A DNA stretch of 64,000 bases from IMG/VR virus record IMGVR_UViG_3300002835_000011. The stretch is one strand, 5' to 3'. Both the position numbers and the translations under genes were made by a program. Positions within the stretch are counted from its first letter, which is position 1. Every line of letters starts with the position of its first letter. This stretch comes from an uncultured virus (IMG/VR IMGVR_UViG_3300002835_000011). Lineage: Duplodnaviria; Heunggongvirae; Uroviricota; Caudoviricetes. Shown here one piece after another: positions 20,755 to 61,660 of the stretch. The notes under the pieces were generated by a model. It had not been told where the DNA came from, made no database searches, and worked only from the letters and a program-made list of their open reading frames with translations.

Positions 20755-21579
20755 TTAAGCAACGTTGTTTTGCCCTAAATCGGAGATATTAAACTTGTCC
20801 GCTTGTACTCTTGCTTTTTCTAAACTTCCAAGATAGTCATTGTTGATATCTTTTCCCCATCCAGCATTTGCGTTGACCATCGCTTTTAAAGCAGTCTCTT
20901 GATCCTTAAAAGCATTTATATCCTTAACCCCATATTTTTGATACATTTTAGGATTAGAAGCTCTGTCTAAGAAATAAAGAACTGCTGTCTCTGCTGCTAC
21001 GTCTATATCATTTAAAACATCAGGATTCGCCACTATATCTACTTTTCTATCTAGTTTTCCTAGCTTATCTAGTAGTTTCTGCATATTTTGATATATTCCC
21101 TTGAAAGTTATACCGTTGAATCCTCTTCCTCTGTATTTATAACCCTCACCTGGCGCATTTCCATATCTTCCACCGTAAACTTTATTATAAAATGCCTGAT
21201 CGTCTTTTTTCAACTGATCTATTTGAGCATCTGACATTTCACCAACACGACTTCCAAATATACCTCTTATTCTCGAAGCTGATGTATTAGAATATGATGT
21301 CTCATTCTTAGGCACAAATCCTGTTTCTTTTCCTATAACACCGAGTATAGCTTTTTGTGTGAATGGATTAGTTATTTCATGTTTTTGCATTGCACTTATA
21401 ATTGCCTGAGCATTTTTTGCTTTGTCTCCCGAGACTTCACCTTTCATTGTGATAGAACCCCCAACAGGAGACTTCTGTAATCCTTCTCCTCCAAGGAGTT
21501 TCATTAGAGATCCCGCATAGTCACCGAATAACTGCTCGTTCATCGATCTAAATTCATTTAGTGTTTTAAGATACTTCAT
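20755..21579 (-). CDS. GH19-like (lysozyme/chitinase) peptidoglycan hydrolase with EQLF leader
   Basis: GKETGF, VYGGRYGN and GYKYRGRGFNGIT; MKYLKTLNEF..NEQLF leader; GATATATA at 21598-21605. Confidence 0.85.
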   Translation of the reverse strand: MKYLKTLNEFRSMNEQLFGDYAGSLMKLLGGEGLQKSPVGGSITMKGEVSGDKAKNAQAIISAMQKHEITNPFTQKAILGVIGKETGFVPKNETSYSNTSASRIRGIFGSRVGEMSDAQIDQLKKDDQAFYNKVYGGRYGNAPGEGYKYRGRGFNGITFKGIYQNMQKLLDKLGKLDRKVDIVANPDVLNDIDVAAETAVLYFLDRASNPKMYQKYGVKDINAFKDQETALKAMVNANAGWGKDINNDYLGSLEKARVQADKFNISDLGQNNVA

Positions 21580-21641
21580 TTTTATTATGTTACCTCTTAT
21601 ATATCTTTAATTTTTTAAACTATTTCTCTTAAATTAGCGAT

Positions 21642-21956
21642 ATGAACAAAAAGGCTTATTTAATTAAAGGATCTAGAATAGAAGGAGAGGAAAGAAAGGT
21701 TTGGATAGAAAGGGTAACCATATCAAAACCAAGAGCAGAAAAGATTAAAGAAACACTAAATAGTTCCCTTCTATCTGATATAGAAAAGGGTAAAGAAATA
21801 TTTGATAAGTATATCAAAGAAGGTAGTGAGGATTCACCTTGGGAGGATAAAGGATTTTATCTAGATCAAATGTCAGAAGATGAATTTAAGTATTTTTGTT
21901 ACTATAGATATGGAACTAAGCTTCCTTTTACTATACACGAAATGGAGTTAAGCTAG
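21642..21956 (+). CDS. Hypothetical protein
   Basis: 104-aa ORF. Confidence 0.55.
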   Translation: MNKKAYLIKGSRIEGEERKVWIERVTISKPRAEKIKETLNSSLLSDIEKGKEIFDKYIKEGSEDSPWEDKGFYLDQMSEDEFKYFCYYRYGTKLPFTIHEMELS

Positions 21957-22837
21957 CCAAAAATTCCGCTTATTTTTTTTCTTCTGGCTATCACCTTAAA
22001 TCTCTTCTCTGCTTTTTTTGCAATTATTCGAGCCCACTCTGGTGTTCTTCCCATTTTTTCTCCTATAGCTCTAAATTCCATAGGTTCCTTTTCTTCTCCC
22101 AATCCATATCTCAGCATAATAACTTCCTTTTCGATAGGCTTTAATTCAGAAAGAACCTGTAAAACAATATTTTTAAAGTCCTCATCTATAACTATACTGT
22201 CGCTATTCTCTGATGACTCTATAAAATTTATAGGACTAAATATATCTTCATCCGGATTATTACTACCGTGGCTTTCTAGTGGAATTGAAACTGGATTATT
22301 CTTTATAGTTTCTATTGTGCTGTTAGAGATCTTAATTCCATTTTCTGGATCTTTTATTATTTCTATCATCTCCTCGAGCGAAGGCTCTCTACCATTATAG
22401 GAGGTAAATTCATCCTCTAACAGCTGGTATCTCCTCATTTCATGATTAATGTTAGTTGGTATTCTTATTGACCTGGAATGATTATTAAGATACATTAATA
22501 TGTTTTTTCTTATGTGCCATACGGCATAGCTTATAAATTTAAAACCAGTACTAGGATCGAAAGTCTCTATGGCTTCTACTAGTCCCTTGTTTCCCTCTGA
22601 TATTAGGTCTTCTAAATTTGCCTTTGGGGATTCATAAGCTTTTGCTACAGAAACTACAAATCTTAAATTAGATTTTAAGATTATCTCTTTAGATTTTGCA
22701 TCCCCCTCCCTTGATTTTATTGCTAGTCTTGCTTCTTCGTCAGGTGTAAGTATAGGATATCTGGAAATTTCTGTAAAATATCGATTTAAATTATCTGTTA
22801 TGTTAGTGATTCGGTTGACTATTTTAAAATCACGCAT
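21953..22837 (-). CDS. Sigma-70 family factor (divergent paralogue)
   Basis: SNLRFVVSVAK, DLISEGNKGL, FDPSTGFKFISYAVWHIR and region-4 HTH. Confidence 0.95.
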   Translation of the reverse strand: MRDFKIVNRITNITDNLNRYFTEISRYPILTPDEEARLAIKSREGDAKSKEIILKSNLRFVVSVAKAYESPKANLEDLISEGNKGLVEAIETFDPSTGFKFISYAVWHIRKNILMYLNNHSRSIRIPTNINHEMRRYQLLEDEFTSYNGREPSLEEMIEIIKDPENGIKISNSTIETIKNNPVSIPLESHGSNNPDEDIFSPINFIESSENSDSIVIDEDFKNIVLQVLSELKPIEKEVIMLRYGLGEEKEPMEFRAIGEKMGRTPEWARIIAKKAEKRFKVIARRKKISGIFG

Positions 22838-22885
22838 TCATTTATATTTAATGGTTTATAATCTTATTAACTAAACAGAAATTAG

Positions 22886-23086
22886 TTACATGAAATTCTG
22901 ATTTTTATTCTTTTCCATCCACATTTTAGCACCATTTCCTAGCATATCAAATATTTCATTCGATGGCATTTCTGATTGCTGCATATGTTTTTTGAATTCT
23001 CTATCTGCTTCGGGATTAACTCCAGCAGCTTTGTTTAAAGAATCCAGCTTCTTTTTTACGTTTTCTAAATACTCTCTATAGTCCAT
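22886..23086 (-). CDS. Small hypothetical protein
   Basis: MDYREYLE start; AATATATA upstream. Confidence 0.55.
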   Translation of the reverse strand: MDYREYLENVKKKLDSLNKAAGVNPEADREFKKHMQQSEMPSNEIFDMLGNGAKMWMEKNKNQNFM

Positions 23087-23152
23087 AGTGTATATATTTA
23101 ATCTTTTTTTTAATAGGATTTTAATTTCTACAATTGGGAAAATTATGATAGT

Positions 23153-23452: not shown

Positions 23453-23491
23453 CCTTAATAGTGTCTATAAATTGATATAATATAGACACGA

Positions 23492-25656: not shown

Positions 25657-25923
25657 GTGAAAGATTTACCATTTGAAGAATCTTGGATATCTGATAACAT
25701 ATCGATAAGGACTTTTAGCCCGGACACTGAATCCGAAGAGCTAAAATGGCACATTGATATGGAAGACCGAATAATAGAATCCCTTAGTGAAAACGATTGG
25801 CAATTTCAATCTGACAATAAGCTTCCTGTTAAAATAGAAGGAACTATAGAAATAAAAAAAGGGGAATGGCACCGAATTATTAAAGGTTCCACTCCCCTAA
25901 GAATTAAAGTAACTAGATACTAG
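25657..25923 (+). CDS. Small cupin-like conserved phage protein
   Basis: ELKWHID.EDR and WHRIIKG; AATATATA upstream. Confidence 0.6.
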   Translation: MKDLPFEESWISDNISIRTFSPDTESEELKWHIDMEDRIIESLSENDWQFQSDNKLPVKIEGTIEIKKGEWHRIIKGSTPLRIKVTRY

Positions 25924-26522
25924 GCTGCTTTAATATCTGAAGATTCTATTAAAGTATAGGTAAAAGAATTACCGTGTATTCCTCTAGCTTTTCTTACAAT
26001 CGTCATGAACGATTCAAAATCTGCAGATTTTTTAAATACCTGACATCCTTCAGACCAGTTTTCAACATATGTTGAATCAGCTCCAGCTTTATGTATATTG
26101 ATACCAAAAACGCCCTCCTGGATTTTATTCTCGTCATATTCTAGATCCTTATCAGCGTCTCTATAAACCTTTACTGGTTTAGCTTGCTTTAATGCTTCGT
26201 ATTTTCCCTGGTGTAAACCAATTCCATGTGATCCTCTGTATTGTCCCTCAACTAATCTAGCTACACCAGCAGTATTATGATATTCAAGAACACCTTTTTT
26301 TCCAGGATCTGTAGTTGCAGGCCATTCATGATATTTCCATGCTCCAGTCTCGTCTTTGTAGGATATGGTTAATAAATCATCAAAAGCATTAGTAACTTTT
26401 TGTCCTGTAGATGAATTTCTGATCCCAATAATATTAACATCGAATCCTTTGTTATTAGCGTCTTCGAAATAGACATATCCCTTGGCTTTAACGGCAGCCT
26501 CAACCTGTTCTCTTGTGTACAT
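25920..26522 (-). CDS. Putative cell-wall peptidase (L,D-transpeptidase-like His/Cys motif)
   Basis: TTDPG and GINIHK...WSEGCQV; downstream of the endolysin. Confidence 0.65.
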   Translation of the reverse strand: MYTREQVEAAVKAKGYVYFEDANNKGFDVNIIGIRNSSTGQKVTNAFDDLLTISYKDETGAWKYHEWPATTDPGKKGVLEYHNTAGVARLVEGQYRGSHGIGLHQGKYEALKQAKPVKVYRDADKDLEYDENKIQEGVFGINIHKAGADSTYVENWSEGCQVFKKSADFESFMTIVRKARGIHGNSFTYTLIESSDIKAA

Positions 26523-26588
26523 ATTTTATACTTTATTTGATATTATTTATCTCAATATTTCAATAATTCTTGTATCTAAAATTCATAC

Positions 26589-26723
26589 TTATAACAATTC
26601 TCTGTTCATTAATCTATTTTGATAATATATTACACCAAGCATAAGGATAATCACGAAAGATTGCTCCTTAAGCTTAGAAATAAAAACATCAAAAAATCCT
26701 CCCATTGGGGTTTTAGCTTCCAC
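26589..26723 (-). CDS. Short single-TM protein in the lysis cassette (holin-like or truncated)
   Basis: Translated by hand from GTG: VEAKTPMGGFFDVFISKLKEQSFVIILMLGVIYYQNRLMNRELL. Confidence 0.5.
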   Translation of the reverse strand: MEAKTPMGGFFDVFISKLKEQSFVIILMLGVIYYQNRLMNRELL

Positions 26724-26725
26724 GA

Positions 26726-27559
26726 TTATTTAAGCAATGAGTAATACTCTTTAAAGTGTTTGATTCTATCAGGTAATCCGATAGTACCTCCATTTACTCT
26801 TTTTGTTACTGCGGTAACTGTAGCATCGTCTGATCCTCTGTCGCAAATTGACCATAAGCTATTGTTATTGAAGAAGAATGCTGCAGACATTAGAGGGTAT
26901 TTAGTAGCAACTAAATCCGGATTTCCTAAGATATCGTCATCTACGAATTTATCAAAAGAAGCATAGTTAGATTTTCCTGTTAATTGGATATAGCCTCTAC
27001 CTCTAAATTTAAAACCTTCTTTAGAAGCTTCGTCACCATTGCCCATTCTGTTTCCATAAACCCTAGAAGCTATCTTTTCTGGCTGTCTTGCATAAGATTC
27101 ATTAAGATTTCCAGGGAAATATTTTGGGAATATCTTTTTAAGGCCGTCGGCAGAATAATTAAGATTTTCTGAAACGGCTTTAAAACCTCCAGACTCGTGT
27201 CCACACTGTGCTAAGAAGTGTGCAAGTCTTAATGTGTTAGTGATATTAAATTTAGCTGCTGTATCTGGGATCTGTGCAAGAACTGCATCAGGAATATGAC
27301 CCTTTAAATTTTCTAGCTTGAAAGCTGAAGGTGGTATAGAAACTGGAGCTGCTGCAGGAGCTGCTGCTACTGGTGCTGAACCAAACATCTTAGCCCAAGT
27401 ACCGTCGCCAACAATACCGTCGGCTTTTAGACCGTTAGCTGCTTGCCATTCTTTAACTTTTGCTTCTGTTCCTGGACCGAAGGAACCATCTGCGGTAAGG
27501 CCCAATTTTTCTTGGAGTTTTTTTACATCTTCTCCCTTAGATCCATTTTTAAGTAACAT
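26726..27559 (-). CDS. Modular endolysin: peptidoglycan-binding domain plus GH19 catalytic domain
   Basis: GSKGEDVKKLQ..ADG.FGPGT, Ala/Pro linker, FLAQCGHESGGF, FRGRGYIQLTG and VNGG. Confidence 0.93.
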   Translation of the reverse strand: MLLKNGSKGEDVKKLQEKLGLTADGSFGPGTEAKVKEWQAANGLKADGIVGDGTWAKMFGSAPVAAAPAAAPVSIPPSAFKLENLKGHIPDAVLAQIPDTAAKFNITNTLRLAHFLAQCGHESGGFKAVSENLNYSADGLKKIFPKYFPGNLNESYARQPEKIASRVYGNRMGNGDEASKEGFKFRGRGYIQLTGKSNYASFDKFVDDDILGNPDLVATKYPLMSAAFFFNNNSLWSICDRGSDDATVTAVTKRVNGGTIGLPDRIKHFKEYYSLLK

Positions 27560-27602
27560 AGGAATATATTTTTTATTATATATTCCCAGTTTGGGATAAA
27601 AA

Positions 27603-27848
27603 CTATTGGTAGGTAACCTTGGTAACTTCTACGGTGTCACCGATCTGATATTTCTTTTTTGTTCTAAAAGTCCTCCCACAAGATGTTTTTAATCTGAATC
27701 CTAATGGACGATTTATATCATCATGAACTGATGAAGGTTGAATTTCCTCACAAGAAATAACAGCACACTTAAAAACTTCCTCTTTCTTCTTAAAATCAAC
27801 ACAAGAAGAAAAAAGTAGTAGCCCAAAAAATAATAAAAAGTTGTTCAT
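27603..27848 (-). CDS. Putative lipoprotein
   Basis: LLFSSC lipobox; TATATTTG host-type promoter at 27853-27860. Confidence 0.6.
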   Translation of the reverse strand: MNNFLLFFGLLLFSSCVDFKKKEEVFKCAVISCEEIQPSSVHDDINRPLGFRLKTSCGRTFRTKKKYQIGDTVEVTKVTYQ

Positions 27849-28298: not shown

Positions 28299-30230
28299 AT
28301 GAAACCACTAAGATTAATAGGCTTCCTATTAGCAATCTTTGCTACAAACTTTAATTTATTTGCTCAATCTGGTCCACCAGCACCTTCAACAGGAATATGG
28401 GCAATAATAGACACCAACTACACTGTTGGTACAACCACACAAGGTTTTACGACCGCAAGAATTACTTCTAAGAACACTACACTTTCAAAATATACAGGTG
28501 TACAATTTAGAGTATTCTACGATAAAATAGCATTCACCAATGCTACCGTATCTCTTCTAGGATCTCCTACGAATTTAGATTTTCAATACATAACTAACGC
28601 AGCAAATGGTTACATCACCATGACCTTAGTTTATACGGGATCTAGTTCAACGTATACGCTACCCGATGGAGAGAGATTCGAAATTAATTTCACTCATGCT
28701 GCTTCATCAGTGTTTAATAACTTAGCAACTATCACACCATTAGCTTGGTCTGTTGTTCCGGCAGCTAACCCCTTCCAACAATATGCAGCTACTCAGGAAG
28801 GAGCAGACACAACACTAAATCTACACAACTACGGAGGTAACTTTATATTTCAGAATTTCGATTACCACGGAACATTTACCAACGTAACTGGAACACCTGC
28901 TAAGAACTTAACTTTAGCTCTACAAAGAAGACCATTAGGTGGTAACGTATGGTCACAACATTCAACTTATGTTACTGATATAAACGGTGACTTCGCTATA
29001 TCTGTACCATTAGATACTACTTATTGGGACGTGAGATTAGCAATACAAGGAGATTCAATGGCAGTAGGTAACGTTATTTCGACTGCAGATGCACAATTAA
29101 TTAATCAATGGGTACTAGGTAACGGTACGATGACAGGATTTGATTATTATGCAGCAGATGTTAACGAATCAGATAATGTAACTATTACTGACGCATACGG
29201 AGTATTCGGTAGAATTTCAGGAAGATTCGCAGTATGGCCTAACAATACGAAGGATGTTAAATTCTTTACACAATCCGAATATAACACTATTAACGGATCA
29301 GCAACTAACTATACATCATCAATAGCCGGAGCAACTAACTTTACATTTGAGATATTACCTGGACAACCAGATTCAGTTGTTTACTACGTAGTCGTACCAG
29401 GTGATGCTAACGGTACTGGTTATCATATGGCTCGTGTAACTCCAATTGAAGTAATAGTTGGTCCTGCACCAGGTCTTGAAAATCAAATATACAACGTAAT
29501 AGACACTAAGGTAGAATACGACTTTCCTACAGAATCAGTAGAGGTTAACGTTCCTCACATTTCAGTACAAGAGGGGAACTTAGTAAATGTACCAGTAAAG
29601 GTATTAACCAACGGAAAGGAATTAAACTCCCTTCAATTTGGATTAAAATATAACTCAGATATACTTTCATTCAAGGGAATTTACTCAACATCTTCAGTAA
29701 TGGAATGGCTTACTTATGTCAATCCAAACGACGGAGAAGTAGATTGGGGTGGATATGACATAACTAACAATCAGAAGACGCTAAAAGATGGCGACGAAGT
29801 TATAACCCTACAATTCGTAGCACTACAACCACAAAATCAATGGGATGAGAGTCCTTTATATACCACTAGAAAATTTGCAGGTAACGCATCGAATTACAAG
29901 GACTTAACATTAACGCCAACAAACGGAATTCTTCAGGTATTAAAGATATCTAACGGACAAATAATAGATGCAAACTCTATGCTAGTCTACCCTAATCCAT
30001 TCGAAGAGGAAGTTACTATAACATTTAGCCTATCAGAAACTTCTAATGCTACATTATACATATCAGATTTACAGGGAAGAAAACTAGCTACAATATTAAC
30101 TGGTCAAGTACCAAACGGACAATTTTCATACTATACAGATCTTGGTAAATTAGAATCGGGATTATATTTCGTAACTCTAACCACTGAGAACGGAAACACT
30201 ATAGTAGAAAAGATAGCCAAAATAAAATAA
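28299..30230 (+). CDS. Secreted cohesin/dockerin protein with T9SS C-terminal sorting domain
   Basis: Signal peptide; cohesin-like GVQFRVFYD and SLQFGLKYN; dockerin-like ADVNESDNVTITDA; CTD VYPNP...GLYFVTL...VEKIAKIK. Confidence 0.8.
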   Translation: MKPLRLIGFLLAIFATNFNLFAQSGPPAPSTGIWAIIDTNYTVGTTTQGFTTARITSKNTTLSKYTGVQFRVFYDKIAFTNATVSLLGSPTNLDFQYITNAANGYITMTLVYTGSSSTYTLPDGERFEINFTHAASSVFNNLATITPLAWSVVPAANPFQQYAATQEGADTTLNLHNYGGNFIFQNFDYHGTFTNVTGTPAKNLTLALQRRPLGGNVWSQHSTYVTDINGDFAISVPLDTTYWDVRLAIQGDSMAVGNVISTADAQLINQWVLGNGTMTGFDYYAADVNESDNVTITDAYGVFGRISGRFAVWPNNTKDVKFFTQSEYNTINGSATNYTSSIAGATNFTFEILPGQPDSVVYYVVVPGDANGTGYHMARVTPIEVIVGPAPGLENQIYNVIDTKVEYDFPTESVEVNVPHISVQEGNLVNVPVKVLTNGKELNSLQFGLKYNSDILSFKGIYSTSSVMEWLTYVNPNDGEVDWGGYDITNNQKTLKDGDEVITLQFVALQPQNQWDESPLYTTRKFAGNASNYKDLTLTPTNGILQVLKISNGQIIDANSMLVYPNPFEEEVTITFSLSETSNATLYISDLQGRKLATILTGQVPNGQFSYYTDLGKLESGLYFVTLTTENGNTIVEKIAKIK

Positions 30231-30598: not shown

Positions 30599-31216
30599 AT
30601 GAGAAACATTTTCAACACAAAAAGCGAGTACGTTAAGGTAGAAGACAAAAACAGATTCTATTATATGCTTCAACAAATGCAAGCTAATAGATGGAGAATT
30701 ACAGCGATCGTGCTAGGATTATTTTTCTTTATCATTCTTGGAATAAACGCAGGAGTTTTTATAGGAACAACTGTTAACGAGGATTGGAAAGAAATGCTAC
30801 TTATCCTTTTAGGTGCCTTTGTAGGTAACTTAAATAAAGTGGTGGATTACTGGTTCAATTCTGAGGATAGAGATAAGATGCTTATCCAGAAAGTTGACGA
30901 GGAAGATGGCGTAGCACTTTCTAACGTATCTGAGCCTTCCCCTGAAAAAAAAACTAAAGTAACAGAGGAAGTTTACGAAGAGCCTGTAGTAGAATATCCT
31001 GCTCCAGTAGAAGAAGCTATAGTCGAAGAATTTCAAAAAGCTGAAGTTGACGAAGACGGTGACGGAGTAAATGATGGATATGATACTGACGGAGATGGAG
31101 ACATTGACGAATATTTCGAACACAGAAACTGCGAGCACATTTGGGGAGACGCAGATGGTGACGGTTTCGAAGAATGTCAAACTTGCGGATTACTAAGAAG
31201 CCAAATAGAAGAATAA
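30599..31216 (+). CDS. Two-TM membrane protein with DxDGDG repeats and a Cys/His tail
   Basis: Two hydrophobic helices; DEDGDG, DTDGDG and CEH.WGDADGDG..EC..C. Confidence 0.7.
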   Translation: MRNIFNTKSEYVKVEDKNRFYYMLQQMQANRWRITAIVLGLFFFIILGINAGVFIGTTVNEDWKEMLLILLGAFVGNLNKVVDYWFNSEDRDKMLIQKVDEEDGVALSNVSEPSPEKKTKVTEEVYEEPVVEYPAPVEEAIVEEFQKAEVDEDGDGVNDGYDTDGDGDIDEYFEHRNCEHIWGDADGDGFEECQTCGLLRSQIEE

Positions 31217-31218
31217 GA

Positions 31219-31959
31219 ATGAAAAATCTAATAATCATAATATCTATATTAAGTTTATTCAGTTGTAAAACTCTGAACGCCCAACCCCCTCAAGGAGGGG
31301 GAATTGGGTCTGTTAAAACGGAACAGTACGTTGCAGATTTCGAAAAAAAGCAATCAATAGATTCTGTTGCGGACTATGACGGAGAAATACAGGTCCCAAT
31401 ACAATTACTGAAAATAGGTATTAATGAGGAGCTATATGAATTATACCCAGAGTTAAAAGACAAAAGGGTAGGTCTAGGGGTTACAAACATAGTAATTGAA
31501 TATCTAGAATACACTAATAGATTTATCTTTACGGAGGAAAAAGAGGAGATCAAGCAAAGAATGATAGCCCAGGATAAAGCTTCCGACAAGGGAGTATCAT
31601 CTAATAAGATAGAAGTAAAGGGAAATGTTGTCCTAGCTAAATACTTTGTTTATATAGAGGTTTACGACTTTAGCGTGTCAGAAGACGAGATAGTAAAAGT
31701 GAACGGACAGCAAACGGTCAACCAGACAACTAGATTAGGACTTCAAATCAAATTTGTAGATGCTGAAACAAGCCAAGTTATCGTTGGATCAGGTTTAGGT
31801 GAAGCTGTAACCATTAAAACTTCCTCAATATTGGGTGATATTAGCGATGAAGTAAAATTCAATCAGTCAACAGTAGGTATATCCACTAAAAAAGCATTGG
31901 AAACTGCCTCATCTAGGGTCGTTACTAGGTTAATATCTAAAGGAATATTCCCAAGGTGA
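31219..31959 (+). CDS. CsgG-like lipoprotein
   Basis: LSLFSC lipobox; TNRF...E, VYDFS and LQIKFVDAETSQVI pattern of the CsgG/HfaB family. Confidence 0.72.
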   Translation: MKNLIIIISILSLFSCKTLNAQPPQGGGIGSVKTEQYVADFEKKQSIDSVADYDGEIQVPIQLLKIGINEELYELYPELKDKRVGLGVTNIVIEYLEYTNRFIFTEEKEEIKQRMIAQDKASDKGVSSNKIEVKGNVVLAKYFVYIEVYDFSVSEDEIVKVNGQQTVNQTTRLGLQIKFVDAETSQVIVGSGLGEAVTIKTSSILGDISDEVKFNQSTVGISTKKALETASSRVVTRLISKGIFPR

Positions 31960-43476: not shown

Positions 43477-44253
43477 TTAAGCTATAACTCCCTCAGATTT
43501 ACCCCATGTTTTCTTATACGGACCTTTATATCTGAATGATGCAGTTTTTTGCGGGTTTCTATTAGCAACACTACTCCAAGTATTTATGTTGTAGTTCATT
43601 TCTATTTGTCCTTTCTTATCACCTTTGAATCCTCCAGATGAATTTGATATAATATTATTTCCTTCAACAACAACACCAACGTGTCCAGCTTTACTTCCTC
43701 TTGCTGTAATAATTATATCTCCCGGCTTAGACTCAGTTGCCCAGTTGGTTATTTTTTCCCATACACCATCCGCTTTAGAACTTTCCTTTTCCATGTGGTT
43801 GTACATATGGCCCGTTCCTAAAGTTATAGCTCCAGATCCTGCGATAGCATATCCGGTAGCTCTATAAAAAATAATAGATACTGCAGCAGCACATCCGAGA
43901 TTTCCGTTTTTAGTACCAGGTATCTTTCTTGTTGAAACATTTAAATTAGCGTAAGCTGAATTTACAATATTACCAATTGGTCCAGCTAGAGGAAGATTCA
44001 TAGGAGCGTTATCACTCTTATCACTTATACCAACAGTAGATCCATAGTTGTCTAATTGATCAGTACTTAATTTAACAACTGGGACTAAAGCATTCCCTAA
44101 TCCAGTTGGGTTTTCTGCGGGGATCATACCAGGCTCTTCTTGTCCAGTCTCTTCTACAGATATTCCCATCAATTTATTGAATACTGCCATTTCTCTACTG
44201 AAAAGCTGCTCATATAATAAACTGAATTCTGAGATATTTTTTATATGTTTCAT
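43477..44253 (-). CDS. NlpC/P60-CHAP-like putative peptidoglycan amidase with EQLF leader
   Basis: GCAAAVS, PGDII, GHVGVV and SNSS; MKHIKNISEF..YEQLF leader. Confidence 0.75.
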   Translation of the reverse strand: MKHIKNISEFSLLYEQLFSREMAVFNKLMGISVEETGQEEPGMIPAENPTGLGNALVPVVKLSTDQLDNYGSTVGISDKSDNAPMNLPLAGPIGNIVNSAYANLNVSTRKIPGTKNGNLGCAAAVSIIFYRATGYAIAGSGAITLGTGHMYNHMEKESSKADGVWEKITNWATESKPGDIIITARGSKAGHVGVVVEGNNIISNSSGGFKGDKKGQIEMNYNINTWSSVANRNPQKTASFRYKGPYKKTWGKSEGVIA

Positions 44254-44261: not shown

Positions 44262-44942
44262 TTATATTTTGGAAAGTAGATCCGAAGTAGCATCTTTATT
44301 TGTTTCCTTGTGGTCGTTATTACCACTAGTCTTTTTGTAAGTCAGTGTATCAGCAATAGTTTTTGTTGCATCGTCGTTACCAGATCCTGACTTTGTGTAA
44401 AAATATCTAAGCTTCTCCTTGTTGTTTTTTGCTAGCTCTTTATAAAAATCAGCAACTTTGCCATTACCCAAAAATATATCAGCCATATAAATAGCATCAA
44501 ACTCTGAGGCTCCGTAAGTTTTTAGAAGAGACATACCCTGCTCTGATCCCTTAGAAAAAATATAAAGGACCTTTTTAGCAGGTTTTACAGATTTATCTTC
44601 TAGCTGTTTTTTTACATTCTTATAAGATTTAGCTCCATCTACTGCACCATCTTTAGCGATAAAAAGATTTATAGATCCAATCTTTCCGGTAAAATTGTTA
44701 GCGATATATTCGCCGCTCTTTTTTCCGTCTATATCTTCCCCTCCATAAACAACAACTAAATTTGCTTTTTTATCACTGGCTATACTAAGAGCTCCTTCGT
44801 TTTTTAGATCTACACTCTCTGCTTTTTTAGCAGTTTCAGAAGAAGCTCCGAGCATCTTAGCAAAGAGCTCTGCTGATTTAGCAAAAAGCTGCTCATTGAT
44901 CTCTGTAAATTCGTGTATGGTTTTAAGGTGCTTCAAAATCAT
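44262..44942 (-). CDS. Alpha/beta-hydrolase-like protein with EQLF leader
   Basis: VVVYGG, LYIFSKG elbow-like motif, C-terminal His; leader; GATATATA at 44954-44961. Confidence 0.5.
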   Translation of the reverse strand: MILKHLKTIHEFTEINEQLFAKSAELFAKMLGASSETAKKAESVDLKNEGALSIASDKKANLVVVYGGEDIDGKKSGEYIANNFTGKIGSINLFIAKDGAVDGAKSYKNVKKQLEDKSVKPAKKVLYIFSKGSEQGMSLLKTYGASEFDAIYMADIFLGNGKVADFYKELAKNNKEKLRYFYTKSGSGNDDATKTIADTLTYKKTSGNNDHKETNKDATSDLLSKI

Positions 44943-44965
44943 TAATTATAGTGTATATATCAATA

Positions 44966-45940
44966 TCACTTATTTAATATCCAATAGAAAATAAGAGGAG
45001 CAACTATAGTTGCATCGGATTCAACTACAAATTTAGGAGTGTCAGTATCTAGTTTACCCCATGTAATTTTTTCATTAGGTACTGCACCAGAGTAAGATCC
45101 ATATGAAGTAGTCGAATCCGATATTTGACAGAAGTAAGCCCAGAATGGAACGTCTTCCCACTCAAGATCCTGATACATCATAGGAACCACGCATATAGGA
45201 AAATCCCCTGCGATACCACCGCCTATTTGGAAGAATCCTATTCCCATACCAGAGCAATTACTTTTGTACCATTCGCTCAGCTCGACCATATATTCGATCC
45301 CACTTTTAACTGTGTCTGCCTTTAGCTCGCCTTTAATAACATACGAAGCAAATATATTTCCCATAGTTGAATCCTCCCACCCGGGAACAACCATAGGAAG
45401 ATTTCTTTTAGCGGCTTCGACCATCCAAGAATCTTTAGGATCAATTTCATAATACTGTGCAAGTACTCCGCTATTGATTAATTTATACATATATTCATGA
45501 GGAAAATATCTCTCACCCCTATCTTCAGCTTCTTTCCATATATCATATATGTAGGATTGTAGTCTCCTAAAAGCTTCCTCCTCGGGAATACAAGTATCTG
45601 TTACCCTGTTCCATCCTTTGTCTAAAAGCTCTCTTTCTTCTTGTGGTGTTAGATCCCTATAATTTGGTATTCTTTTATAGTGAGAGTGAGCTACTAGATT
45701 CATTATATCCTCCTCTAAATTCGCACCAGTACACGAAATAATATCAACTTTTCCTTCTCTAATCATTTCAGCAAGGGATATACCAAGCTCTGCAGTACTC
45801 ATTGCACCGCCTAATGATATTAGCATTTTACCTCCGTGGTCTACATGATGTGAATATGCTACAGCTGCATCTTTTAAAGCTGCAGCATTAAAGTGTTTAT
45901 AGTTTCTTTCTATAAATTGAGAGATCGGGCCTTTTTTCAT
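44966..45940 (-). CDS. Deoxyhypusine synthase-like protein (probable homospermidine synthase)
   Basis: HFNAA, GAMSTAELG, TGANLEED, IGGGIAGDF, SGAVPNEKITWGK and SDATI. Confidence 0.93.
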   Translation of the reverse strand: MKKGPISQFIERNYKHFNAAALKDAAVAYSHHVDHGGKMLISLGGAMSTAELGISLAEMIREGKVDIISCTGANLEEDIMNLVAHSHYKRIPNYRDLTPQEERELLDKGWNRVTDTCIPEEEAFRRLQSYIYDIWKEAEDRGERYFPHEYMYKLINSGVLAQYYEIDPKDSWMVEAAKRNLPMVVPGWEDSTMGNIFASYVIKGELKADTVKSGIEYMVELSEWYKSNCSGMGIGFFQIGGGIAGDFPICVVPMMYQDLEWEDVPFWAYFCQISDSTTSYGSYSGAVPNEKITWGKLDTDTPKFVVESDATIVAPLIFYWILNK

Positions 45941-47085: not shown

Positions 47086-47457
47086 CTATCTAGGAAAATC
47101 CTTACCTCTTTTAATCATATTGATTTCGTAATCAGCAGGTTTAAAAGTATCTATAGTTATTTGGATAGCTTTTTCTACATCCATATCCTTACAAGAAAAT
47201 ATATCTATAAAGCAATATCCCTTTTCTTCAAACGAATGTACAGATAGATGGCTTTCAGCTATAATAACAATTCCTGTTATTCCTTTATCTTCTGGAACTA
47301 AACCAGAATAAGGAAAAACGTATGGCTGTGTTATAGGGGTCATTTTAATTAATTCTGGAAGACTCTTTAAGTAATTAAAGTGTAGCTCGTAATTTGCTAA
47401 AGTTTCTTTTGGGCATCCTTTTAGATCTATAGTAATGTGAGGGCCGAATTCTTCCAT
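47086..47457 (-). CDS. speD: Pyruvoyl-dependent S-adenosylmethionine decarboxylase-like proenzyme
   Basis: GPHITIDL, self-cleavage motif IAESHLSVH, DIFSC; GATATATA at 47481-47488. Confidence 0.92.
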   Translation of the reverse strand: MEEFGPHITIDLKGCPKETLANYELHFNYLKSLPELIKMTPITQPYVFPYSGLVPEDKGITGIVIIAESHLSVHSFEEKGYCFIDIFSCKDMDVEKAIQITIDTFKPADYEINMIKRGKDFPR

Positions 47458-48172: not shown

Positions 48173-48577
48173 TTAGTCCTTGTTCCCAAAAAGTCCAAAA
48201 GATCCTAGAGCTGACGCTCCTTTATTGTACGAGTCAACGTCTATTTTTTTTGGATCTATATCATTGTGCTCGCTGATCTTCTTAAAATTAGAGTCAAATA
48301 CCGCAGTGTCCATAAGTAAAGGCTCGGTAGATTTTATTACGTATCTAATAAATCCGCCATTGCTCATCTTATTATGTGCAATAAAAAGGCCTGCCTCTCC
48401 TATCTCAGGACGGCTTTGACAAAATTCTATTGCTTCTCTTAAGTTTAGCGATTCTGGTATAGAAGAATTTATAGGATTATTAATCTGATCATCAAAAGGC
48501 ATCCAATCAAATACTATAGAAGATCCGTCTCCTTGTGGGACATCAAAATTTTCAAAAAGCTTTATGTGCTTCATCAT
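48173..48577 (-). CDS. Putative virion protein (MKHIKLFENF leader, C-terminal GASALGSFG tag)
   Basis: Shared terminal motifs. Confidence 0.7.
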   Translation of the reverse strand: MMKHIKLFENFDVPQGDGSSIVFDWMPFDDQINNPINSSIPESLNLREAIEFCQSRPEIGEAGLFIAHNKMSNGGFIRYVIKSTEPLLMDTAVFDSNFKKISEHNDIDPKKIDVDSYNKGASALGSFGLFGNKD

Positions 48578-51614: not shown

Positions 51615-51809
51615 TTATTGTTTTTTTTTATGCTCTTTGTATCCAATAAAAAATCCAACGGCAACTATTAGATTCATACCAAAAGAAGCAATAATCTCGT
51701 ATAAATCTTCATAAGCATTCATAGTAAGATGAACGTGTCCAACTATCCAAAAAGGAATGGATAAGTTTTCACTTATCCACACTATTAAATATCTTAAGAA
51801 GTTTACCAT
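51615..51809 (-). CDS. Small membrane protein
   Basis: NLSIPFW.VGHVHL and two hydrophobic helices. Confidence 0.6.
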   Translation of the reverse strand: MVNFLRYLIVWISENLSIPFWIVGHVHLTMNAYEDLYEIIASFGMNLIVAVGFFIGYKEHKKKQ

Positions 51810-52099
51810 TATTGGTTAACTGTAAATCTATTATTATACCCAGGCATTAGGTGCTTCTGCATATACATTATAGCGAAATTAACTTTGGACCAATCTCTTT
51901 TTTCCTCTGCATCTTTAAGCATCATCATGGCATATTCGGGGTGGGTAACAACCATTCCTTTGATCCTTTCATCACCGGAAGATTCAAGATAATATATGTC
52001 CTCTCCCGGTTTTAAATTATCATGAGCAGCATGTACTTCTTCTCCGTATAATATTCTACCTGTGCTTTCGTTTATTTCTTTGAATCTTTTTAGTTTCAT
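51809..52099 (-). CDS. Putative virion protein
   Basis: MKLKRFKEINES leader; GATATATA at 52116-52123. Confidence 0.65.
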   Translation of the reverse strand: MKLKRFKEINESTGRILYGEEVHAAHDNLKPGEDIYYLESSGDERIKGMVVTHPEYAMMMLKDAEEKRDWSKVNFAIMYMQKHLMPGYNNRFTVNQ

Positions 52100-54935: not shown

Positions 54936-55418
54936 TTATTTCTTATAAGACATTCTTAGCTCCTCCCACATTTTACCCAAGTGGTTATCACCGATCCATT
55001 CTCCATTCTCCATCAGAGCTCCCCAGAAAAGATTGCTTCCCCTCTTACCACGGGATGTGACATCCTCGTATATTTTAGCATCGCCAGTTTTAACTAACTC
55101 AGCGACAAGATTGTGATGTTGTTCCAACTTAAGAGAAATACACATTCTCATGTTGTCTAAATCTTCTCTGCTCAGAGGTTTAACACAGATCTTGTCCGGA
55201 TGTGCATTCTTCATAATGCTCTTAGCCTTTAATTTAGCTCCCATCGGACTTTTCTCGTTTCTTATAGCTTCTCTTATCTCTTCGTCATTGAATCGAAGTG
55301 CTTGAAAAAGAGCCTCCGTGGTTCTCCACGTTTTACCTTCGTAAGAAACTGGATATGGTGACATATTACCTAACCAGCCATAAGGTAGATCGACTTTTGT
55401 AAATGATATATAGCTCAT
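54936..55418 (-). CDS. NADAR (YbiA-like) domain protein
   Basis: [25 protein letters not shown] and G.NHLGK.W..LR; TACCTTTG promoter at 55433-55440. Confidence 0.88.
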
Positions 55419-55472
55419 AGATCTATTTTTTACAAAGGTAGAGATTATAAATATATTAAAAAAAGGATTTTT

Positions 55473-57053
55473 ATGAAACATCTTAAAAAATTTATTAATT
55501 TCATTAACGAGGGAGCTTGGTATGATAACGGAAAAACATATCTCTCAGTAAAGAATGATCCTAATAATCCAAACGAGCTTTTAAAAACAGTAGATCCCAA
55601 CAATCTTAATTTCTCGGAAAGAGGTGTAGCTAACATAAAAACCTACTTCGGTCTATATCCTAAAACCCCATACAAGAAGGGAAATGAAGAAAGCAGGAAT
55701 GCTAAGAAATTTATAATGGAGCCATTAAAAAATGATGATTTTTCAATGTGGTCGGGAGAAACGCTAGAAGACTTTTTTAAATATACATTAACTAATAACA
55801 TCGAGGGCGGTATAGATTATATAGTAACTATAGGAAGTAGTAAAGACCTTGTGGGTAAGATGGCGCAATCTTTTTTAAACCTATATCCTAAAGCATCAAT
55901 AATACCCATACCTAAGATAAAGTACACCAATGTAATGGATGCGGTGGACTGGGAGGCATACAATAGAAAAATAGAATCAGAGCTTGCTATACCTAGATAT
56001 TACGATAAAGACATAATTAATAAAAGAACAGGAGAGATAATTCATAGAAAGGGCGACGAAAAACCAAGATCCTCACCAACTATGCAAAGAGTTGAACCGT
56101 GGATAGACGATATGGTAAAAAAATTACTACAAATGGAGGATCCTAGCTTCGAAATAAAATCCTCCGGCGAGATGGGCGGAATAAGGGGTGCTCTAAGACC
56201 AAAATACAATACAGCAACAGAAGGATTCATAAGTGCAGTACATCACTGTTGTTTAGGAGACAACAATGGGAATTTTGGTAAAATGCTTATTATAGATGAT
56301 AACATAAATCAAGGTAATGACCTTAGAGACATATCAAACAAAATAGTAGAGATCGTCTCGGGAATCATAGACATAACAAAAAATATCACAGAAGATAGAT
56401 TAAAAAAATCCGACATTTTATCAAGAATTGAAACTGAGTCATTAAAAAACATAAGCAAAAATATATTCTGCTATGCACTATATAATTTTGGTCCTAGCGG
56501 TAAAAGATATGAACCTATACCAAAATTCAAGACAGATCTGCTTAAAAAGTCGTTTCTAATGGCAGCTTCAAAAGTTATGGAGATTTCGTTAGATGAAGTT
56601 AATAAAAGAATGTGGAAGCCCGGTGGATTCATTCTAGACAAGCCAAGATATTTAATGGTGGATAAATCAGATTGGGATATGATCTATAATGAACTACTAG
56701 ATATTGCAGCGGAAGAGTATGAAAAAACCTCACAGGATTCTAAATCAGAAATTCGAAAATCATTAAAAGATGTCCTTGATAGCAATATGGATAAAATATT
56801 TTTCGCTGAAGCGATAGCACCTGTCCAAGCTAAACCCCCTCATCCTCTATCAGGAGTACTGAAAGTTGGTACAAAATTAATCGATAAAAACCAGATGGGT
56901 AAGGTTGTAACAATATCCGAAATAGATTACGATGACAGATCGTTTAAATTTGACATAGGAGACGGAAGAAGTAGTGGAAGATTTTATTTCCCTCTAGTTT
57001 CAGCTCCAGGAATTCCTGCTAGTGGCAGAGAAAGATTTAAAGTAACACAGTAA
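55473..57053 (+). CDS. Putative virion protein with a PRTase-like domain
   Basis: [13 protein letters not shown] leader; [10 protein letters not shown] and [16 protein letters not shown]-loop-like motif. Confidence 0.6.
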
Positions 57054-57616: not shown

Positions 57617-57622
57617 CTTACT

Positions 57623-58134: not shown

Positions 58135-58641
58135 TTAGAATTTAAGTATAGATTTAAGCTTCTCTGCACCGCCTTCTATGCTCTTCATAACATTATGGCC
58201 TGCATCTTTAGCGGCATTTATTATTTCTTCCATATCTATATCAAGATCCTCCATAGACATAGGAACTTTAGCAACGTCCTCGTCTCCCGTTTTTGTACAA
58301 CCAGATTTACATGTAAAGCTTAAGCTCATACCTGGTAATTCAAACTTAATTTTAGATTTCCCTAGATTTGCTTTTATAGCTTTAACAGTCTCGCCATCCT
58401 TAGCTAAATCACTGGTTACATCCTTACCTAATGCAGATACCGATATAGAATTACCATTAGGAAAATCCTTAACCTTTATACCTACTACACCCGCGCTAAC
58501 GACGTACGTATATGTTTTATTATTTTCTTTGTCTACAACTTTAATATGTCCCTCTGGAGTTGCACTCATTGTAAAACTATCAACTACAAACTCCGATTCA
58601 TTTACAGATTGGAAGTTTTCGAAAAGTTTTATATGTCTCAT
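58135..58641 (-). CDS. Putative virion protein
   Basis: MRHIKLFENFQSVNES leader. Confidence 0.7.
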   Translation of the reverse strand: MRHIKLFENFQSVNESEFVVDSFTMSATPEGHIKVVDKENNKTYTYVVSAGVVGIKVKDFPNGNSISVSALGKDVTSDLAKDGETVKAIKANLGKSKIKFELPGMSLSFTCKSGCTKTGDEDVAKVPMSMEDLDIDMEEIINAAKDAGHNVMKSIEGGAEKLKSILKF

Positions 58642-59225: not shown

Positions 59226-59238
59226 ACCCCATTTTTAT

Positions 59239-59679
59239 CTATTTATCCGGGATTATTCCTAGATCATCTAAAAGATCCCTGTCCCAATTTTTATAAAATC
59301 CGATTTTCATAAGGTGTGATCTAGCATCTAATAATTCGCCTTTTCTTTGTATTATTATTGCTGGATATTCCCAAACTGTTTTATTTCCGTTGAGACGGAG
59401 AGTTTCTTCCGGATGTGTATCTAGAAAAAGATATTCAGGGAAAATTTGATTATAGTATTCACATACCATTCCTAGATCATCGTACTCTATACCAATTCTA
59501 GGAACGACACAAACAGATATACCATCTTTTAGTGGTATCAAATCGGGTATAGTTGACCCATCCTCAACTAGAATTACCTCCCTGTTCATAAATGCCTTTA
59601 GAGCATAGGGACAAGCAGGACCTAATTTAGGAGAAGATATTCTAGATATCCAATCATATAGTGATTCATTAAGATTCAT
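59239..59679 (-). CDS. DUF1415-like protein
   Basis: WI...CPYA, HP and L...GFY..W. Confidence 0.55.
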   Translation of the reverse strand: MNLNESLYDWISRISSPKLGPACPYALKAFMNREVILVEDGSTIPDLIPLKDGISVCVVPRIGIEYDDLGMVCEYYNQIFPEYLFLDTHPEETLRLNGNKTVWEYPAIIIQRKGELLDARSHLMKIGFYKNWDRDLLDDLGIIPDK

Positions 59680-60095
59680 ATGTCTTTAACAATAAAGAAG
59701 ATAGATTCAGATGGGTCATCCCTTACCGTATATTTTGGATGGTATTCGTCCTCATCGCCATTGTCATTTAGACCGATTGCTGGCTCTCCAACTAGGTAAT
59801 TATATACTTCATAAGGATCATCAATTATACCAACTGAATATTCGCCAGTTCCGAATGGATCCTTTACCGCTTCTATTTCAGTAACTACAACATAGGAGTA
59901 TTCGAAAATATTATTATAGATTTTTAGCTTATGAAATTCCTTTATTAAATATCTTGCCTCCATACTAGTGGCTAGTCTCTTACCTCCAGAAAGTGTGCTA
60001 ACATAATTCAATAGATCCTTGTAATATTTTAATTCATTTTCTTTTGGAATTAATTCGATTTTACCTATTTTGAGCGGTCTATTTCTTAACATCAC
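59676..60095 (-). CDS. Hypothetical protein, possible divergent paralogue of 46283..46591
   Basis: G.IE, GG.RL.T..E, KL.I and terminal IVKDI versus LVRTI. Confidence 0.5.
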   Translation of the reverse strand: MMLRNRPLKIGKIELIPKENELKYYKDLLNYVSTLSGGKRLATSMEARYLIKEFHKLKIYNNIFEYSYVVVTEIEAVKDPFGTGEYSVGIIDDPYEVYNYLVGEPAIGLNDNGDEDEYHPKYTVRDDPSESIFFIVKDI

Positions 60096-61000
60096 TTAAT
60101 ATCAACATTTACTCCAACATATCCACGATTTAAATAATCCTTGGATATTTTAGATCCTGGGAAATTCTTTCTTATATATGCCATGTATAGATTGAGTCTT
60201 CTATCGTCACCGTCGTAAGCTATACTAGGAACAAATGAAAATGTTTTTACATCCGGATTATTTTTTAGATAATCTTTTAATATTCCCATAATGGTACTCA
60301 TTATTGTTAATGGCTGACCAGCATTAGTTATATCATCTCTATTGCCATCACAAGAAAAATAAAATGATATACCATTTAATGTATTCCTAGATATATGAAC
60401 CTCATAAAGCTCCGGTCCAAGATAGAATCTATAAAGCGCTCCCTCCTTGTTGTCATACACCAAATCCCATGGCAGATTATCTATATTGGCTTCACCTATC
60501 TCGTTAAGTTTAGACTCATCTAAGAATTTATCTATATAAAATCCATCATACTTGAGTATATTGCCATGCGAATGCTTTTCCTCAATATTACCTCTCTTGA
60601 ATATGTCGTTAAAAGAGTCAGGGAGTAAATTAATATACCCGCCACTGATCCTTTTTAAGTACAGGGCTAAACCAGTATACATCGTTGACGAAAAGGGAAT
60701 TGGTGAAGAAAGCAGTATTACTGCATAAGGTGCTAGTTTTGGAATTTCCTTTAGTTGTTCTAAAGCATTTTTAAATTCCTCCTCAGTGGGTTGATCCCCT
60801 CTAGTGTCAAGTCTTAATTTTTTTCTGAGGTGATAATTAAAAACCCTCATCATTTCAGATGTTTCTCTGCCCTCTTGTTTAAAAGCATTCAAAACATTAT
60901 AAGCAATATCTTTGGCTCTGCGATAAGCAAACTTTAAAGCTTCCCAAGATATTTCCTCCTTAATAAGATTATTCGATAGCGGTTTTCTGTGGCGATCCAT
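60092..61000 (-). CDS. Two-domain putative virion protein
   Basis: IKEE, internal ILKYDGF..KLNE, C-terminal domain with GDDRR..Y. Confidence 0.65.
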   Translation of the reverse strand: MDRHRKPLSNNLIKEEISWEALKFAYRRAKDIAYNVLNAFKQEGRETSEMMRVFNYHLRKKLRLDTRGDQPTEEEFKNALEQLKEIPKLAPYAVILLSSPIPFSSTMYTGLALYLKRISGGYINLLPDSFNDIFKRGNIEEKHSHGNILKYDGFYIDKFLDESKLNEIGEANIDNLPWDLVYDNKEGALYRFYLGPELYEVHISRNTLNGISFYFSCDGNRDDITNAGQPLTIMSTIMGILKDYLKNNPDVKTFSFVPSIAYDGDDRRLNLYMAYIRKNFPGSKISKDYLNRGYVGVNVDIK

Positions 61001-61015
61001 ATATCTATGAGTATG

Positions 61016-61660
61016 CTATTTGTCTACCACAGTAACAAATTTCTCGGTTAATGATCCAGATTTGTGTTTTGCTTCCTCGTAACCTTCCCTTCCCTTGTAT
61101 TTAGCAAGATCCGAAAAATCCCCCCCGTGTCCTAGTCCACCTCTTCTTGCTATAAGATAATGAGTTCCCTCTGGGACCTTAACTAAAGGAACCCCAACGT
61201 TTAATCTAGTTCCTGATAAATCCATCTTTATCTTCTTAACATCTGGCTTAACACTTATAGTTTTAAGATATTCGTTAAGTTCTAGAGTTAATACGTTTAA
61301 TAGCTGATGGATAGTATCTCCTTTACCTCCAGTTGCGTGTTTAAGGAGGAATCCAGAGCTGGATCCATCATAGCTTATCTTAAATGAAAGGGGGGTTTTT
61401 TCAATCTTTATCTTCGGTACAACTCTACCTCCAATCTTATTGGCTCCATTCCAGAAAGCCTCTTTACCGAAATGCGTCCAACAATCATTGTTCGGACAAG
61501 ATGCCTCATCGTTCCTATCTGGTAATATTTCAACAGAAGCACCAGAAGCACCAGCTTCTTCTCCACCTGAAGTCATGCCAAGCATCTTAGAAAACTTAGA
61601 AGCATAGGTGCTAAATAATTGTTCGTTAACGAACTGGTTTAGAGTTTTAATGTGTCTCAT
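61016..61660 (-). CDS. Protein with EQLF leader and unknown cargo domain
   Basis: MRHIKTLNQFVNEQLF..KMLG; GATATATA at 61665-61672; RRGGLGH motif. Confidence 0.7.
   Translation of the reverse strand: MRHIKTLNQFVNEQLFSTYASKFSKMLGMTSGGEEAGASGASVEILPDRNDEASCPNNDCWTHFGKEAFWNGANKIGGRVVPKIKIEKTPLSFKISYDGSSSGFLLKHATGGKGDTIHQLLNVLTLELNEYLKTISVKPDVKKIKMDLSGTRLNVGVPLVKVPEGTHYLIARRGGLGHGGDFSDLAKYKGREGYEEAKHKSGSLTEKFVTVVDK

Follow-up and report, generated by a model that had tools for sequence, protein, structure and literature searches.

A two-part N-terminal leader on four proteins of an uncultured T4-like jumbo phage, and its candidate role as a head-loading tag on envelope hydrolases

Why should four genes that are scattered over a phage genome, and whose products are otherwise unrelated, begin with the same peptide? 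The question is raised by a 64,000-nucleotide (nt) stretch of DNA from an uncultured T4-like jumbo phage (IMG/VR record IMGVR_UViG_3300002835_000011; the whole stretch is called the window below). Four of its open reading frames (ORFs), P1 to P4, share an N-terminal leader, which is followed by a linker and by a cargo domain that differs from one protein to the next. The shared leader is real and statistically solid, and its first part is a tag that occurs lineage-wide. As to function, the most likely reading is that the leader is a T4-style load-and-clip tag by which a set of envelope hydrolases would be packed into the phage head; this reading draws on sequence and on analogy, and we judge its chances of being right or wrong to be about equal.

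The leader of P1-P4 (Table 1) follows the pattern MKHIKxxxxF..[MLIV][NY]EQLF-x8-K[LM][LM]G and begins at Met1 in three of the genes and at residue 3 in P3. The original prediction, made from the letters of the DNA, had described a leader with equal spacing in all four genes; the EQLF-x8-K[LM][LM]G segment is indeed exact in 4/4, and the coordinates and N-termini quoted there are correct. The tripeptide QLF is present in five of the 211 window ORFs of at least 50 amino acids (aa); four of these five occurrences are the N-termini of P1-P4, whereas the fifth ORF (31017-31238, 73 aa, with LQLFEIL at residue 65) is unrelated. Leave-one-family-out profiles were built from the leaders of three families (window and relatives) and run against 109 window ORFs. 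Every time, the window gene of the left-out family ranked fourth, directly after the three included families, with E-values of 3.6e-13 for the GH19-like family, 6.1e-9 for the CHAP family, 3.9e-15 for the P3 family, and 1.4e-14 for the P4 family; the next ORF followed at 1e-5 to 1e-2. Chance similarity of the leaders is ruled out by these profiles. Moreover, Glu, Gln, Leu, and Phe of the EQLF segment are invariant across 17 aligned leaders from the window and its relatives, and the synonymous codons used for Glu, Gln, and Leu vary freely (GAG in nine and GAA in eight leaders; CAG in 11 and CAA in six; four different Leu codons). What is under selection is therefore the peptide rather than the DNA sequence, and a nucleotide-level signal was rejected as the basis of the leader. 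The linkers diverge freely, and the flexibility that had been predicted for them agrees with the low-confidence stretch seen there in structure models. The same leader stands on four unrelated cargo families, each of which has kept it in the relatives G001, G002, G004, G006, and G009, and the four cargo clusters have no BLAST link to one another.

Table 1. Positions of the leader genes, of other ORFs with the short tag and of the upstream motif in the window
Feature	Position	Strand	Basis
P1, 274 aa: leader (residues 1-30), linker, GH19-like lysozyme domain	20755..21579	-	ORF translation
P2, 258 aa: leader (residues 1-30), linker, CHAP/NlpC-P60-like Cys-His domain	43477..44253	-	ORF translation
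P3, 226 aa: leader (residues 1-32), linker, alpha/beta-hydrolase-like domain	44262..44942	-	ORF translation, AF2 model
P4, 214 aa: leader (residues 1-28), linker, conserved domain of no recognisable fold beginning SRNDExSCxxxDCW	61016..61660	-	ORF translation
526-aa ORF, short tag only, no Pfam family	55473..57053	+	tag pattern
168-aa ORF, short tag only (MRHIKLFENFQSVNE|S)	58135..58641	-	tag pattern
96-aa ORF, short tag MKLKRFKEINE|S; GATATATA 16 nt upstream	51809..52099	-	tag + motif
241-aa soluble PAP2-family phosphatase, Part-A-type N-terminus (MRHIEYFNLFKQKSILE); GATATATA 7 nt upstream	19105..19830	+	
134-aa ORF, Part-A N-terminus MMKHIKLFENF; GATATATA 18 nt upstream	48173..48577	-	tag + motif
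365-aa ORF, Part-A N-terminus MKHVKSFRLFE; GATATATA immediately upstream	62335..63432	-	tag + motif
GATATATA, late-promoter-like, ends 18 nt before P1 ATG	21598..21605	-	
GATATATA, ends 11 nt before P3 ATG; P3 and P2 form one unit	44954..44961	-	
GATATATA, ends 4 nt before P4 ATG	61665..61672	-	

What, then, does the leader carry? The cargo had been predicted to consist of envelope hydrolases, with a domain of unassigned nature in P4; the hydrolase-like character holds for P1, P2, and P3, and the P4 domain found no fold match. P1 resembles SPN1S-type endolysin (PDB 4ok7, E 2.8e-8, residues 60-206) and PHROG 181 'endolysin' (E 3.5e-22); it gave no match to Pfam Glyco_hydro_19 at E<=1. E85, E93, and YRGRGF are invariant in 46 family members, and we take E85 and E93 to be the catalytic acidic pair, by analogy. 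This similarity, together with the conserved acidic pair, points to a GH19-like phage lysozyme. In tblastn searches P1 was matched solely through its lysozyme domain (residue 47 onward), never together with the leader, and P1-like domains were found both in endolysins and, in other jumbo phages, within larger proteins that have a tail or baseplate annotation. P2 matches Pfam CHAP slightly below the 26-bit cut-off (24.5 bits, E 3.9e-5), which its family member P0088 passes at 27.2 bits; C121 and H191 are invariant in 26 sequences, and a search of PDB sequences with the family profile gave a single weak match (E 0.23). P2 appears to be a CHAP or NlpC/P60-type Cys-His protein, the window protein itself being a borderline member of that class.

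P3 matched no family in Pfam or PHROG. Its AlphaFold 2 (AF2) model, with a predicted local distance difference test score (pLDDT) of 84.1, recovered 136 PDB chains at E<=1e-3 in Foldseek; among the matches listed almost all are esterases, lipases, or cutinases, with template modelling scores of 0.4-0.5. S130, D155, and H211 are invariant in 26 sequences, in the Ser-Asp-His order of a putative triad. The modelled fold is that of an alpha/beta-hydrolase, and with these residues it points to an esterase-like enzyme. In viral contigs, none of nine pattern matches to P3 was confirmed by tblastn, and orthologues were later reached through the leader. P4 has 77 homologues, and a 50-sequence alignment contains 57 invariant columns, which include two Cys and several His, Arg, and Asp. 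Its AF2 model is confident (pLDDT 80.5); Foldseek found no PDB chain at E<=1e-3, VIA wide gave a best Z of 5.0, and BFVD and Atlas gave no match.

The original prediction went further and regarded the cargo as swappable, in the manner of polymorphic effectors. A profile of the 17 leaders was run with an opened length window against 5.8 billion proteins, and the best 120 of 183 matches (E<=10), all with E<=1.1e-9, were listed. Clustering 113 of these by cargo gave 49 GH19-like, 33 CHAP, 28 P3-family, and two P4-family proteins and one unclustered 85-aa fragment; the remaining seven belong to the P4 family. When 1.84 billion cluster representatives were searched exhaustively with HMMER, 17 matches were returned at E<=0.001, of which 16 have the leader at or near the N-terminus and represent the four families or short fragments; the seventeenth was rejected as a false, repeat match. 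In both protein sets, the matches listed are orthologues of the same four families, so the notion of exchangeable cargo did not hold up. The extended leader appears to be confined to four cargo families, each inherited vertically together with it, and this is therefore not the behaviour of a polymorphic-effector system.

A different kind of breadth, overlooked by the original prediction, lies in the first 13-17 residues of the leader. These residues, called Part A here, read M-K-x-[IL]-K-x-hydrophobic-x-x-F followed, after 0-3 residues, by hydrophobic-N/Y-E; Part B is the QLF-x8-K[LM][LM]G segment behind it. Distant P4 orthologues retain only MxxIKxFxxF[ILV]NE, and the residues that follow vary (QLF, SFF, GFF, or NSI). 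In addition, two P4-family proteins (P0039 and P0042) carry an insert of about 30 residues, rich in Cys (NPCWxGYKQIG..KKVPNCV), exactly between MNHIKSIEEF and VNEQLF; the leader is therefore built of two separable parts. A looser Part A pattern occurs at the N-terminus of 15/109 window ORFs and of 15/323 and 24/388 ORFs of the relatives G002 and G007, respectively, as against 4, 5, and 9 internal matches. The strict tag was defined as hydrophobic-x-x-aromatic, 0-3 residues, and hydrophobic-[NS]-E, lying at most eight residues from a Met; it is found on 7/109 ORFs of the window, 12/323 of G002, and 23/388 of G007, with an internal background of approx. 0.012 per 25-residue segment. Part A is thus a lineage-wide tag, carried by 4-6% of the ORFs of the window, G002, and G007.

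Several of the proteins that bear it are wall enzymes. A Pfam scan of 38 tagged proteins assigned a family to 11, of which six are envelope-related. In G007, one tandem group consists of a tagged CHAP protein (46.2 bits), a tagged SLT-domain protein (25.4 bits against a cut-off of 21.3), and the P4 orthologue, and elsewhere in that genome the tag is found on a Hydrolase_2 protein (25.6 bits, cut-off 27), a second CHAP protein, a GDPD protein, and a PG_binding_1 protein. In G005, the P4 orthologue belongs to a tandem array whose other members are an Amidase_2 protein (44.4 bits) and a protein of 228 aa, and all three have leaders of the form INE[SN][FI]F..FG[SK]II. Since wall enzymes of G005 and G007 bear analogous leaders, a tagged envelope-enzyme set is a trait of the lineage.

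Tagged genes also tend to share an upstream element. As predicted, three of the leader genes lie directly behind the late-promoter-like motif GATATATA, and P2 starts 8 nt past the stop codon of P3. The motif occurs 16 times in the window as against 8.4 +/- 2.9 expected, a number reached by one of 100 shuffles. A GATATATA-like motif within 32 nt upstream was found for 8/16 tagged and 13/93 untagged window ORFs (p 0.0025), for 13/25 and 27/298 in G002 (p 4e-7), and for 23/44 and 43/344 in G007 (p 8e-9), which makes it 6- to 11-fold likelier ahead of tagged ORFs than ahead of others. The fact that the motif travels with the leader could mean that a cassette of promoter and 5'-coding sequence was copied before four genes by recombination, in which case the genes would share ancestry without shared function and the leader would be a harmless extension; the restriction of the extended leader to four gene families in one clade fits such a history as well. 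However, the four EQLF residues stay invariant in 17/17 leaders while synonymous sites vary and linkers diverge, which indicates purifying selection on the peptide, of 113 database proteins examined, 96 have EQLF no further in than residue 40, and distant relatives keep the hydrophobic pattern with other residues. We regard a passive cassette as improbable.

The same data bear on the idea that Part A, as a general tag, serves some other purpose, be it recognition by the phage ClpP/AAA+ machinery, tail or baseplate assembly, or control of late translation, the four enzymes simply having a longer version. A tag on so many ORFs, kinases and ATPases included, would be in keeping with it. The window encodes both ClpP and an AAA ATPase, the start codons lie 4-23 nt behind the promoter-like motif, so that the mRNAs may be almost leaderless, and the annotation of P1-like GH19 domains in tail and baseplate proteins elsewhere could be read in the same way. 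Against a translation signal at the nucleotide level stands the synonymous codon variation at invariant residues; furthermore, the tag ends in a head-protease motif and clusters beside the capsid genes of G007, and no evidence ties it to Clp. On balance, a general role of this kind seems to us quite unlikely.

Which head genes does the lineage possess? The IMG/VR relatives of the window phage span 77-290 kb; G001 and G009 are close relatives, whereas G007 is more distant and complete (289,651 bp). Three of them have tandem paralogous portals of the T4 type (G001, L072:1674-4970; G007:29170-32476; G009:102558-105442). The head genes of G007 comprise two portals, a gp21-type protease (PF03420) fused to the scaffold, and a gp23-type capsid protein, and the sequences nearest to this capsid protein and to the G001 portal are those of uncultured megaphages and Lak phages, followed by Sphingomonas phage PAU and Tenacibaculum phages. 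Protease and scaffold form a single 676-aa ORF (G007:43277-45307), the gene of which is also preceded by the GATATATA motif, and the scaffold consists of about fourteen 14-residue repeats (YSxYLAENLDxxIx), each with a hydrophobic-A-E site. The motif [LIVM][NA]E occurs 21 times in the 676 residues, mostly within the YLAENLD-type repeats, that is, 3.1 times per 100 aa compared with 0.21 genome-wide, as expected of a scaffold that is cut up at such sites. The capsid protein has SLNE near residue 45; an alignment with the T4 capsid propeptide, made to place the cleavage site, was ambiguous. Five short-tag genes (39686, 48335, 49218, 54096, and 56419) lie within 39-57 kb of G007, beside the portal, protease-scaffold, and capsid genes, and a sixth (47125) has a Part-A-like tag at an internal Met. 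PF03420 is otherwise represented among the relatives by a short paralogue in G002.

Two further observations concern head-type genes. Outside any head module, a 137-aa S77-protease-like ORF (G002:4026-4439) and gp23-like ORFs of about 300 aa (G002:34550-35476 and G001:63691-64380) were found; these ORFs recall the diverged protease paralogue reported for SPN3US. In G001 (L072:9554-19999), ORFs with collagen-like GSSGTSG repeats, of 1357 aa and more than 2106 aa, extend from the portal region to the end of the contig, and collagen-like repeat genes of this kind probably break assemblies ahead of the capsid gene.

On the load-and-clip reading, P1-P4 would be late genes with a two-part N-terminal leader. 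Part A would be the counterpart of the T4 capsid targeting sequence (CTS) and would attach its protein to the scaffolding core during prohead assembly; a gp21-type head protease would then cut after Glu, so that the mature enzymes would start with QLF. Residues up to the candidate cut are M-N-E, L-Y-E, I-N-E, and V-N-E in the four genes. The head protease of T4 recognises L/I-x-Glu, and the cleavage after xxE that had been proposed fits the hydrophobic-x-Glu rule of the T4-type head proteases encoded by the relatives. The enzyme set (GH19-like muramidase, CHAP peptidase, Ser-Asp-His esterase-like hydrolase, and a domain of unassigned fold) would act at entry, and lysis would fall to the separate endolysin at 26726-27559, which has no tag. 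That the proteins are packaged and cut, what Part B does, and when the enzymes act are all inferred from sequence patterns and from the T4 analogy.

Several points weigh against packaging into the head. No head protease, scaffold, or capsid gene was seen in the 64,000 nt of the window, the contigs of close relatives end before these genes, and searches for PF03420 and PF07068 returned nothing in G006, which is 81% complete. The resemblance of the tag to the T4 CTS is a pattern over about 10 residues, over which homology is not demonstrable. Five of the 11 tagged proteins with a Pfam family are non-envelope proteins, namely an adenylate kinase, two MoxR-type ATPases, a metallopeptidase with collagen repeats, and a coiled-coil protein, and the frequency of the tag is far above the handful of CTS proteins of T4. 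In the cultured Tenacibaculum phage PTm1, which has a fused protease-scaffold, a profile search did not find the tag and a pattern census gave one weak candidate among 312 ORFs. We know of no precedent for wall hydrolases inside a T4-type head, and, as the internal proteins of T4 are delivered with the DNA, the route of such enzymes to the wall is puzzling. Finally, in 13 of 26 aligned sequences of the P3 family, the MKHLK leader is preceded in frame by a hydrophobic extension of 22-27 residues (MKEIYPILIFSLVVF..GYININKEK); if this extension is translated, the tag is not N-terminal in those proteins. The carriers include P0143, P0145, P0150, P0153, and G009 (L022:663-740), and the window copy is without it. 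In G009, the ATG of the extension lies 4 nt behind GAATATATA, and a second motif, GGATATATT, lies inside the extension, an arrangement that points to two products, a long one with an anchor and a short one with the tag.

Part B brings in the question of where the enzymes would go. It is an amphipathic helix with a hydrophobic moment of 0.43-0.48; the fraction of shuffles that reach the observed moment is 0.0035-0.01 in three of the four leaders and 0.10 for P2. Among the leader-profile matches listed, Part B is confined to the four cargo families. If the leader is cut as described, Part B would remain on the mature enzyme as its new N-terminus and might be a shared handle that keeps the enzymes inside the filled head or, once they have left the particle, brings them to the host envelope.

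An amphipathic helix that exceeds nearly all shuffles in three of four leaders may instead be a membrane-seeking element of lysis-phase accessory enzymes, that is, of hydrolases that are parked at the inner membrane until the holin acts and are never packaged. The types of cargo suit lysis, late-promoter-like motifs would be appropriate for lysis genes too, and the hydrophobic extension of some P3-family genes is a possible membrane anchor. Nevertheless, this account does not explain the invariant hydrophobic-N-E or the 15-fold enrichment of such sites in the scaffold, and Part A is also found on cytoplasmic enzymes and on genes inside the G007 head module. P1-P4 themselves have no transmembrane-like segment (no 19-residue window with mean Kyte-Doolittle hydropathy >=1.6), a feature that a Sec or lipoprotein signal peptide or a signal-arrest-release endolysin would have at its N-terminus. 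In addition, the window already holds a separate, untagged lysis-like cassette (25920-27848), which comprises the endolysin (PG_binding_1 + GH19), an 81-aa lipoprotein-like ORF (27603-27848; MNNFLLFFGLLLFSSC), and a 200-aa ORF of no assigned family. We consider a lysis-phase role rather unlikely.

The load-and-clip reading can be carried one step further. Free envelope enzymes (a muramidase, a CHAP peptidase, and an esterase; in relatives, also an amidase and a lytic transglycosylase) would be packed into the capsid by a tag that is clipped off, and the cleavage would unmask the QLF..KMLG helix, which would steer the ejected enzymes to the host envelope; the head, and not the tail, would then deliver the wall-breaching activity. 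In this full form the proposal is doubtful.

With regard to its genomic setting, the window has a G+C content of 33% and encodes two sigma-70-type factors, thymidylate synthase, RNA ligase, ClpP, an AAA ATPase, a PIF1-type helicase, and homing endonucleases. A 643-aa window protein (28299-30230) carries at its C-terminus a sorting domain of the type IX secretion system (Por_Secre_tail, E 3.9e-13), and because of this domain the host is probably a member of the Bacteroidota. Beside the P3-P2 pair lie genes of polyamine/hypusine type (44966-45940 and 47086-47457), a deoxyhypusine synthase (E 2.8e-41) and an S-adenosylmethionine decarboxylase (E 1.3e-27). Possible counter-defence genes at 4340-6062 and 54936-55481 match cREC_REC (E 3.9e-22), a Tad6-like Thoeris inhibitor (E 9.4e-14), and NADAR (E 1.6e-15). 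Neither megablast of 22 kb nor tblastn of a 565-aa ORF, P4, and P2 revealed close cultured or GenBank relatives, and we found no description of the tag in the literature. The lineage may be the subject of a 2025 paper on 'moraphages', a group of aquatic jumbo phages that have Flavobacteriia as hosts and are related to Lak phages; the main text of that paper is without the term 'N-terminal'.

If the tag works like the T4 CTS, sequence would suffice to tell what a large group of uncultured aquatic jumbo phages carries in the virion, wall- and membrane-degrading enzymes included. The leader would also be a natural two-step address, first load-and-clip and then an unmasked helix, and would widen the toolbox for packing foreign proteins into heads beyond T4. 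If it does not load heads, a peptide of unassigned function on 4-6% of the ORFs of a phage is notable in itself.

How does the leader compare with known systems? Polymorphic toxin and effector systems likewise place a single conserved N-terminal module on unrelated C-terminal enzymes; however, their cargo is highly variable, whereas four families are seen here and no secretion-system trafficking domain was found. Virion-associated peptidoglycan hydrolases, such as the T4 tail lysozyme gp5 and the T7 internal core protein gp16, aid entry and are separate from the endolysin that serves lysis. The known examples are domains of structural proteins of the tail or core, whereas the enzymes considered here would be small, free, and provided with a removable tag.

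The T4 internal head proteins all join the scaffolding core via the CTS, which is removed by gp21, and the proteases of T4 and of giant phages all cut after Glu (as described in PMC5694885). The CTS, 10 residues long, is enough to bring foreign proteins into the head, with residues 4 and 7 serving targeting and residues 8 and 10 serving processing (as described in PMC9026906), and T-even internal proteins, diverse as they are, are described as having the CTS alone in common (PMC3012670). Proteins with the CTS in T4 include IPI, IPII, IPIII, and Alt; the N-terminus of IPII and IPIII is MKTYQEFIAE|A. In the leader of P1-P4, the conserved hydrophobic positions are 4 ([IL]), 7, and 10 (Phe), followed by hydrophobic-x-E; it thus shares with the CTS the MK start, the N-terminal place, hydrophobic residues 4 and 7, the hydrophobic-x-Glu end, and the unrelated cargo, and in position, end motif, and cargo it looks like a member of the CTS class. 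The CTS has 10 residues and is found on a handful of proteins, whereas the tag described here has 13-17 and marks 4-6% of ORFs; the T4 cargo consists of small basic anti-restriction proteins, as opposed to envelope hydrolases with a conserved amphipathic helix behind the tag in four families.

The giant phages phiKZ, 201phi2-1, and SPN3US, as they are described in the published accounts, also have many head proteins that are cut after Glu at a short motif, and paralogues may have the same N-terminal propeptide; the SPN3US head-protein paralogues gp53 and gp54, for example, have an identical 15-residue N-terminus with the protease motif (as described in PMC5694885). According to the same accounts, their motifs are S/A/G-x-E or A-x-E, their protease belongs to the S80 family, and their propeptides stand on paralogues rather than on unrelated enzymes. 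By analogy, the system closest to the leader in working principle would be the T4 CTS, and the next closest the ejection-protein propeptides of the phiKZ and SPN3US type.

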